Assembly (NCBI GenBank): GCA_038245295.1
Contig: JBBRSP010000002.1
Span: 96,001 to 160,000, forward strand
Origin: Candidatus Binatia bacterium
GTDB lineage: Bacteria; Desulfobacterota; Binatia; HRBIN30
DNA: 64,000 nucleotides
Direction of reading: 5' to 3'
In this document: positions 38,253-39,546 of the stretch, one piece after another
How the letters are laid out: each line of letters opens with the position of its first letter
Numbering within the stretch: position 1 is the stretch's first letter
Notes under the pieces: model-generated
Seen by the model: the letters and a program-made list of their open reading frames with translations, nothing else
Told to the model about the DNA's origin: nothing
Database searches by the model: none
Program-made: the position numbers and the translations under genes

Positions 38253-38465
38253 TCAGTGCACCGGGTCCCATCCGCCCGGATGAAACGGATGACAACGCGC
38301 CAATCGCCGCAAGGCCATCCAGGCGCCGCGTCGCACGCCGTGACGGTGAACCGCCTGGCGCGCATACTCGGAGCACGTCGGATGAAAGCGACAGGCGGGG
38401 CCGATCAACGGAGATAGGGTGACTCGATAGACGGCAACGAGCAGGTCAACGGCGCGAACCGTCAT
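38253..38465 (-). CDS. yidD: Membrane protein insertion efficiency factor YidD (start uncertain; frame open to 38624)
   Basis: [33 protein letters not shown]. Confidence 0.93.
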
Positions 38466-38610
38466 CGTCGGGCCATCCAGCGTGCCCAGCGGCTTTGATG
38501 AAAAGTTAGAAAACCCGGCTTCGACGGGCTCAGCCTGAGCGGTCCTTGGTCCTCGATCGCGAGCATCAGCCCGCTCGCCCTGAGCCCGTCGAAGGATGAG
38601 CTTGTGCACG

Positions 38611-39156
38611 TCAGGCGTCGACATGGAGCCCCAGCAAGAAACTCAGATCACGGTGCACTTCGGCGCGACCGATTTCGGCTGCCGCCGAGCGCGCAATGAC
38701 GACGATGTCACGTGGCTCGAGGAGGTGTTGGTGATGACGAAAAAACTCGCGCACCATCCGTTTGATCCGGTTGCGCACGACGGCGTTGCCGACCTTTCGG
38801 CTAGCGGTGATGCCCAGACGTGGCTCTGTTGCACGGGTCATGGCCGTAAGCACCACAAAGGTCGGTCGCGCTCGCCGTTGGCCAACCCGCTCGGTACGCA
38901 GGAACTCGGCCCGCTTGCGCAGGCGACGTGAGTTCGGAAAGCGGCGGTCGACTAACCGCGGCGTTGGCTCGGTTGCTTCGGCGGGATCGAGACCGTAAGG
39001 CGCTTGCGCCCCTTGTCGCGTCGGCGCTTCAGTACGGCGCGGCCGCCGGGAGTTGCCATACGGGCGCGAAAGCCGTGAGTGCGTTTGCGACGCCGGTTGC
39101 TCGGTTGAAATGTTCGTTTCATCACTGCCTCTCGGAGGTTTGGCCGTGCCAGCCAT
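38611..39156 (-). CDS. rnpA: Ribonuclease P protein component with apparent N-terminal extension overlapping rpmH
   Basis: [29 protein letters not shown] (RNR motif), DIVVIAR; the only ATG/GTG/TTG upstream of the conserved N-terminus is ATG 39156. Confidence 0.9.
38952..39122 (-). CDS. rpmH: 50S ribosomal protein L34
   Basis: Manual translation: [65 protein letters not shown]. Confidence 0.97.
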
Positions 39157-39198
39157 TTCTCACCACGGCCGACGATCTATTCGTTTCGGCGGCACGCA

Positions 39199-39226
39199 GG
39201 ACTAACAAACAAAACCCTGCCGTCAA
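39199..39226 (-). promoter_or_regulatory. Candidate sigma70 promoter for the rpmH-rnpA operon
   Basis: TTGACG-16 nt (with TG)-TAGTCC on the minus strand; -10 element is imperfect. Confidence 0.35.
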
Positions 39227-39315
39227 GTCGTTTGACCCCAAAAGCAGGTTCGCATGCCCTTGCCCTGAGCACCGTCGCAACGTCGAGATTTTCAGACGAA
39301 CGGGTCGCCCGCTGC

Positions 39316-39546
39316 CTAAGCAGCGGCAGCGACGGCGTCCGTCTTCTTCGCGTATTCCTTGGCGTAGTGCTCGACGCACAAGCTGCGACGTGAGCGTGGC
39401 TTGTGGCAGTTCTCGGCGGTGCAGATCGTGTAGCGCGGCTTGCCAAGCTTGCCTTTGCGCCACTGGCGATAGTGCCGGTCGCAGTAGCCCTTGGCGCGGA
39501 CGTCCTTCTCGCAGGCCTCAGCCTTGCACGTTCCTTTGTTCGACAT
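39316..39546 (-). CDS. Small basic protein with two Cx4Cx9Cx2H zinc-finger-like repeats (myxobacterial vegetative-protein-like)
   Basis: CKAEAC..KGYCDRHY and CTAENC..SLCVEHY; GGAGG RBS; 4 nt after the gpsA stop. Confidence 0.75.
   Translation of the reverse strand: MSNKGTCKAEACEKDVRAKGYCDRHYRQWRKGKLGKPRYTICTAENCHKPRSRRSLCVEHYAKEYAKKTDAVAAAA

Follow-up and report, generated by a model that had tools for sequence, protein, structure and literature searches.

A likely nested rpmH-rnpA gene pair with a separate upstream rnpA start in a Binatia bacterium and its relatives

Organisation of the rpmH-rnpA locus

The window analysed in this study is a stretch of 64,000 nucleotides from Candidatus Binatia bacterium (assembly GCA_038245295.1, contig JBBRSP010000002.1, positions 96,001 to 160,000), and the features of its rpmH-rnpA locus are listed in Table 1. 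The rnpA frame is the +2 (equivalent to -1) frame relative to rpmH and is stop-free from position -37 relative to the rpmH ATG. The last 109 codons of the 181-codon frame encode a normal RnpA domain, and the first 72 run through all of rpmH. A frame scan found the ATG at -34 from the rpmH ATG to be the sole ATG, GTG or TTG before the RnpA domain, in agreement with an earlier, sequence-only reading of this DNA, which had reported a frame open through rpmH and no such codon between position 39156 and the RnpA N-terminus. The codon for the V of VDRRF is GTC.

The Pfam model Ribonuclease_P (PF00825) matched residues 73-175 of the extended product (E 2e-28, 99.1 bits against a gathering cut-off of 22.3), and Ribosomal_L34 (PF00468) matched residues 1-44 of the 56-residue rpmH product over profile positions 1-44 of 44 (E 6.9e-24, 84 bits). 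Eleven solved RnpA sequences match the extended ORF, and residues 3-8 of the solved chains (112-137 residues) fall on its residues 70-77, so that about 65-70 residues are extra in this RnpA. A genome-wide search found a single rnpA, and RNase P RNA of type A is present in the genome (RF00010 at G000:C40:21790-22154, 230.9 bits); RnpA therefore has to come from this locus. No entry identical to the exact 181-aa or 56-aa protein was found in the protein collection searched.

The L34 proteins of this order (loci L001-L030) carry a C-terminal extension (SIPPKQP...) and are 51-56 residues long against 44 in the Pfam model. In the L34 of this locus, 12 C-terminal residues lie beyond the model (38952-38990, reverse strand), and four genera, including that of this Binatia locus, carry four further residues.

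Two ORFs flank the gene pair on the same strand. A 76-codon Cys/His-rich ORF (39316-39546) lies just 5' of rpmH and contains C..C...C..HY twice; it is kept at the same position in 41 fetched loci, all of this order, and gave no Pfam match at E <= 0.01. The yidD ORF (38253-38624, 123 codons) overlaps the end of rnpA, and its Pfam YidD match covers residues 61-122 only. Between the rnpA stop and yidD lies a dispersed, REP/MITE-like repeat of two arms (38515-38543 and 38571-38601), with 98 blastn-short hits across the contigs of the genome and a Logan word depth about 20 times that of its flanks; one of its arms also scores as a terminator-like hairpin. It is more likely that yidD starts at an internal ATG (38463-38465), after the repeat element.

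Over 38514-39400 the sequence is reproduced, without a difference or a gap, by an independently assembled Logan contig (run X1, 1626 nt) that possibly stems from the source sample. No RNA run was found to contain this stretch. Another study provides a 449-nt contig (X3), which differs over 38812-39257 by 18 substitutions and lacks indels. Variant effects were read by applying the 12 listed X3 substitutions to the window sequence: in the overlap, none of the 5 substitutions alters L34 and all 5 alter the RnpA extension; in the RnpA core all 6 are silent, and no new start or stop is created. On this comparison purifying selection acts on the RnpA core. A length of 181 residues and the same initial methionine recur in two metagenome proteins, 89% and 84% identical.

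Table 1. Coordinates of the rpmH-rnpA locus and its leader in the window
Feature	Position	Strand	Remarks
Extended rnpA ORF	38611..39156	-	181 codons plus stop, ATG start; likely the true extent of the gene (ORF listing)
rpmH, ribosomal protein L34	38952..39122	-	56 codons plus TAG; wholly inside rnpA, +2 frame
RnpA core domain, residues 73-175	38632..38940	-	Pfam PF00825
RnpA N-terminal extension, residues 1-72, overprinted on rpmH	38941..39156	-	Predicted disordered, weakly constrained
Likely rnpA start codon ATG, 34 nt 5' of rpmH ATG	39154..39156	-	Sole canonical start in frame
SD-like GGTGAG, 2 nt 5' of rnpA ATG	39159..39164	-	Sequence reading
rpmH Shine-Dalgarno GAGAGG, doubling as codons of the rnpA extension	39128..39133	-	Sequence reading; motif in relatives
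Promoter-like stretch TTGACG, about 16 nt, TTAGTC/TAGTCC, 5' of both starts	39199..39226	-	
TTAG: rpmH stop TAG and the TTA of the rnpA frame that overlaps it	38952..38955	-	Usual coupling site, without a start codon
Possible leader hairpin GGCCGTG / CACGGCC	39142..39170	-	SD-like motif and rnpA ATG in 15-nt loop

Distribution of the nested layout in the order

The order is represented by 52 species-level genomes in the collection, 51 of which gave an rnpA match. One locus was cut by a contig end, and the 50 usable loci holding both rpmH and rnpA were all read and classed. Loci were placed in class N when no canonical start occurred from 12 nt before the end of rpmH to the first codon of the domain and an upstream in-frame start with an open frame was present, in class D when a start was found only at or after the rpmH stop, and in class B when both kinds of start were present.

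The classes comprised 27 (N), 17 (D) and 6 (B) loci, and no locus lacked both kinds of start. Each of the 27 loci that lack a canonical start near the rpmH stop has an open frame with an in-frame start 5' of rpmH; of the 23 loci that own a downstream start, only 6 have such an upstream start. The sequence-only reading had named an open -1 frame with an upstream ATG as the pattern to look for in relatives, and the nested layout is indeed kept in the 27 class N loci, which span three families (f1, f2 and f3) and include two loci of a fourth, f4. One of them, L024, is borderline, with a GTG 13 nt before the end of rpmH.

Class D consists of 15 loci of the sister family f4, in which GTG or TTG overlaps the TGA of rpmH, and 2 loci of genus g5, in which a spacer of 124-165 nt after rpmH is followed by ATG. 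A usable upstream start is missing from all 17, and in 7 of them stops interrupt the +2 frame. In family f4 a canonical start overlaps the rpmH stop in 16 of 18 loci (GTG in 9, TTG in 7), the overlap codon of the other 2 being CTG; such a start is absent from this Binatia locus, which reads TTAG. The 2 CTG loci, which were among 11 later loci fetched after the pattern had been seen, have upstream in-frame starts (ATG at -34 and TTG at -13). A further f4 locus, L093, with TTG at the overlap, also has an upstream in-frame start. In the f4 loci L006, L028, L071, L072, L077 and L078, where rnpA starts at GTG or TTG on the rpmH stop, open stretches of the rnpA frame 5' of rpmH, 16-79 nt each, contain no ATG, GTG or TTG, and it looks as if upstream starts are avoided there.

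Of the 29 nested loci surveyed first, 16 end rpmH in TGA, overlapped by CTG (13) or TTG (3), and 13 end it in TAA or TAG, with TTA, ATA, GTA or CTA as the overlap codon. The junction codon is thus not kept in nested loci. When the loci are compared, the rpmH stop of these 13/29 has drifted to TAA or TAG, destroying the NTG codon.

The upstream ATG, SD-like motifs and a possible promoter

An ATG is located at -34 in 13 of the 29 nested loci first surveyed and at -31 to -70 in 14 more, and the in-frame upstream ATGs occupy eight distances (-31, -34, -37, -40, -49, -55, -64 and -70). ATG triplets within -70..-1 of these 29 loci lie predominantly in the rnpA frame (30/33), with 2 in the rpmH frame and 1 in the third frame. 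Eight f4 loci hold four ATG triplets in the same interval, and none opens a frame reaching the rnpA domain.

The SD-like sequence noted earlier before the upstream ATG was recovered as GGTGAG (Table 1). The two starts are 34 nt apart and have separate motifs, GGTGAG for rnpA and GAGAGG for rpmH, not one shared Shine-Dalgarno site. In family f1 the motif GGYGGTGAG is conserved 3-6 nt before the rnpA ATG, and a GAGGG-type motif, 5-8 nt 5' of the rpmH ATG, is conserved in relatives. Calculated against the canonical 16S tail (the 16S 3' end was not found in the assembly), the SD duplex energy 5' of the rnpA ATG is -7.4 kcal/mol here with a mean of -6.9 over 27 loci. The rpmH motif averages -7.4 kcal/mol and background windows average -4.5; pairing in front of rnpA is as strong as that in front of rpmH. 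In L027, the closest relative, the SD-like pairing is weak (-2.9 kcal/mol).

Anchored alignments of relatives revealed a conserved promoter-like motif 5' of the ATG, consisting of AAATTGACA, about 17 nt and TGTGGTTTTAAT. At the corresponding position this locus has a -35-like hexamer, TTGACG (39221-39226), with a poorer -10. For the candidate promoter proposed by the sequence-only reading, the hexamer was recovered, and the only support is its position relative to the motif of the relatives; a strict promoter consensus scan found no site.

Significance of the open frame

When this rpmH was resampled synonymously with the codon usage of the genome, the +2 frame was open in 21% of trials (P=0.21), and 41.5% of the 57-codon windows taken from the long ORFs of the genome were open in +2. 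Of 17 loci from outside the order that have a normal rnpA start and GC >= 0.55, 16 had an open +2 frame through rpmH; at least 4 of the 17 had been picked for long open frames. Given these controls and the resampling result, an open frame through rpmH alone is not evidence. The stop-free +2 frame as expressed in T at the wobble sites at risk (0/241 in the order) was likewise dropped as evidence, since controls outside the order had T at 1/132 stop-prone wobble sites, as against 99/430 at other sites. In GC-rich genomes with a normal rnpA start (L043-L087), T is nearly absent at rpmH wobble sites before AA/AG/GA codons, and such scarcity of wobble T may make rpmH an unusually easy target for overprinting.

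Stops in the +2 frame of rpmH were found in 0/33 loci with an upstream start and in 7/17 loci without one (Fisher 0.0002, kinship ignored); those of the 7 loci lie at positions 23, 35 and 116. On a quick tree built from L34 and the RnpA core (160 columns), the nested and downstream-start states must have changed into one another at least 5 times. An independent-pairs test on this tree yielded two well-supported pairs, so the test is underpowered and significance is out of its reach. Judged across the loci read here, chance does not account for the lack of a downstream start combined with a conserved in-frame ATG upstream.

A possible hairpin in the leader

In the leader of this locus GGCCGTG (39164-39170) pairs with CACGGCC (39142-39148) in a GC-rich stem around the rnpA ATG (P=0.04 against dinucleotide shuffles). 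The corresponding sequences of relatives are GGCGGTG/CACCGCC or GGCCGCG/CGCGGCC, and the differences in the stem arms between genera are seemingly compensatory. A stem enclosing the ATG reaches 0.05 against dinucleotide shuffles in only 7/29 loci (median P 0.13), RNAalifold found no consensus structure in 13 leaders of the same length, and an Rfam search of 38900-39350 at E <= 10 gave no match. On these grounds the leader hairpin is treated as a lead only.

One broader reading, which we regard as doubtful, is that nesting recurs whenever the GTGA coupling codon is lost, and that in this clade it would come with a hairpin-controlled ratio of L34 to RnpA. On that reading, the rnpA ribosome-binding motif would be paired with the anti-SD-like CACCGCC/CACGGCC beside the rpmH Shine-Dalgarno, and ribosome loading on rpmH would open the rnpA start, fixing the L34:RnpA ratio.

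The RnpA extension

AlphaFold2, run with 28 extended homologues, predicted residues 1-70 with pLDDT below 50 and without secondary structure, and a confident RnpA alpha-beta fold for residues 71-178 (pLDDT block means of 83-97 for residues 71-180). The second and third letters of the extension codons are the first and second letters of the L34 codons, and an Arg/Lys/Gly-rich L34 accordingly results in a Pro/Thr/Ala/Ser/Gln/Glu/Arg-rich RnpA tail. Pairwise difference at rpmH wobble sites is 0.50 in nested and 0.47 in f4 loci, near saturation in both. Because these sites differ about equally in the two groups, the tail sequence seems free apart from avoiding stops. In Thermus, the length of the extension reportedly varies, and its first third is said to be dispensable in vitro (work of Feltens et al. 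2003).

Annotation of rnpA in public records and in the wider phylum

Of the 120 best relatives in the database, 113 have lengths of 171-245 residues, which indicates that gene callers already predict the long form, and many public calls of this rnpA are of 180-200 aa. Public records disagree on the gene, as judged by eye: P0114 (L027) is a 115-residue RnpA beginning at an ATA that overlaps the rpmH stop, and P0030 (L002) is a 217-residue 'hypothetical protein' beginning at a GTG 142 nt 5' of rpmH. In view of this disagreement, annotation pipelines may truncate rnpA.

Most rnpA open frames in 301 sampled genomes of the phylum have 110-160 codons. No canonical start follows rpmH in L079, a class-level relative with an in-frame ATG at -10, in L032 and L039 (family f30, GC 0.72), with an ATG 28 nt before the true rpmH ATG, or in L088 (G065, GC 0.31), with an in-frame ATG at -37. 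The frame through rpmH is open in 6/24 low-GC controls, so that an open frame in L088, at 31% GC, is unusual.

Where does rnpA start?

We consider it most likely that rnpA starts at the ATG at 39156, 34 nt 5' of the rpmH ATG. The nesting of the two frames is real and conserved in relatives, and the pair is likely translated in the Thermus manner, but from a separate start site. Ribosomes would initiate at this ATG by means of the SD-like GGTGAG, and translation of rnpA would run across the rpmH ribosome-binding site and then through the whole of rpmH in the +2 frame. The product would be a 181-residue RNase P protein made up of a predicted floppy tail of 70 residues and a normal RnpA domain. 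Initiation at rnpA would be weak, in keeping with the low need for RnpA relative to L34, and the tail would be a by-product of overprinting and not a functional domain. A nested gene with its own RBS was the first of the arrangements that the sequence-only reading had offered, and it is the one favoured by the 27/27 loci with upstream starts and by the 30/33 upstream ATGs in the rnpA frame.

The same reading had also offered a non-canonical start. Under this explanation ribosomes that have just made L34 start rnpA by termination-reinitiation, on a non-canonical codon located at the rpmH stop or close to it, and the upstream frame is open by chance; the candidate codons are TTA (38953-38955) or the ACG at codon 65 in this locus, and CTG or ATA in relatives. 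A weak start of this kind would suit a protein needed far less than L34: according to PMC9945441, L34 exceeds RnpA roughly 130-fold in E. coli and rnpA starts are frequently weak. The CTG overlapping TGA in 13 nested loci could act as a weak start, the record P0114 begins rnpA of the closest relative at ATA, and GC-rich genomes commonly have the +2 frame of rpmH open. The TTA of this locus, however, is two changes away from ATG, and the ACG is replaced by GCG in the X3 variant contig. In the 13 loci with TAA or TAG stops the overlap codon varies among TTA, ATA, GTA and CTA, and a codon that is not conserved argues against a start at the rpmH stop. A start there also leaves unexplained both the contrast between 27/27 and 6/23 loci in the possession of an upstream start and the preference of upstream ATGs for the rnpA frame. 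We therefore hold this explanation to be unlikely for rnpA as a whole; in the 13 CTG loci, it is possible that the junction CTG serves as a second, minor start.

A third proposal, that ribosomes slip by -1 within rpmH and make an L34-RnpA fusion, is highly improbable. The rnpA frame is indeed -1 relative to rpmH, and no start follows rpmH, as a frameshift would have it. Against it, the slippery heptamer X_XXY_YYZ is absent from this rpmH and is present in 5/30 nested loci at three different positions, so it is not conserved, and slippage leaves the conserved upstream ATG unexplained. L34 is a buried ribosomal protein, and a fusion to it would be an odd product.

Finally, hardly any weight can be given to the layout being an artefact, with a GTG lost through a miscalled base or faulty assembly, or the mark of a decaying gene: although one letter, GTC to GTG, would give a conventional rnpA start, the base-call error suspected earlier at 38945-38960 is ruled out by the identical, independently assembled X1 contig and by the relatives, 27 other species-level genomes share the nested layout, X3 has neither an indel nor a new start and only silent changes (6/6) in the core, and the genome is without any other rnpA.

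Comparison with Thermus and significance

The rnpA/rpmH pair of Thermus (Feltens et al. 2003, PNAS 100:5724) is presented in PMC9841429 as the only described bacterial case in which one essential gene lies entirely within another and the two starts are linked. Its two AUGs, 4 nt apart in AUGGAUG, are thought to share a single GGAGG (PMC9841429), and the precedent invoked by the sequence-only reading, an rnpA that starts just 5' of rpmH and overlaps it fully, agrees with that account. In our literature searches, no nested rnpA/rpmH was reported outside Thermus, and none was evident by title among 12 papers citing Feltens et al.

The present locus resembles that of Thermus in that rpmH lies wholly inside rnpA, out of frame and with the same frame relation between the two genes (the rnpA start at -4 in Thermus and the ATG at -34 here are each 2 mod 3). 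RnpA gains a long N-terminal extension in Thermus, as it would here, where the extension is predicted to be disordered and varies freely. The start geometry differs: the two starts of Thermus, in the same account, are 4 nt apart with one GGAGG, whereas those of this locus are 34 nt apart (10 to 70 in relatives), with an SD-like motif of its own for rnpA and possibly a hairpin. The host is unrelated to Thermus and belongs to a probably mesophilic, Binatia-type lineage. The Thermus case has proof at the protein level. The coupling of rnpA to rpmH through GTGA, ATGA or TTGA (termination-reinitiation) shares the operon and the relative frame with the nested layout and is used by family f4; this locus has TTAG instead.

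As a second instance spread across a clade, with a different start geometry and with a GTGA-coupled sister family, the nested pair described here provides a natural comparison for the origin of the overlap. The same comparison bears on how the ratio between ribosome and RNase P synthesis is set.
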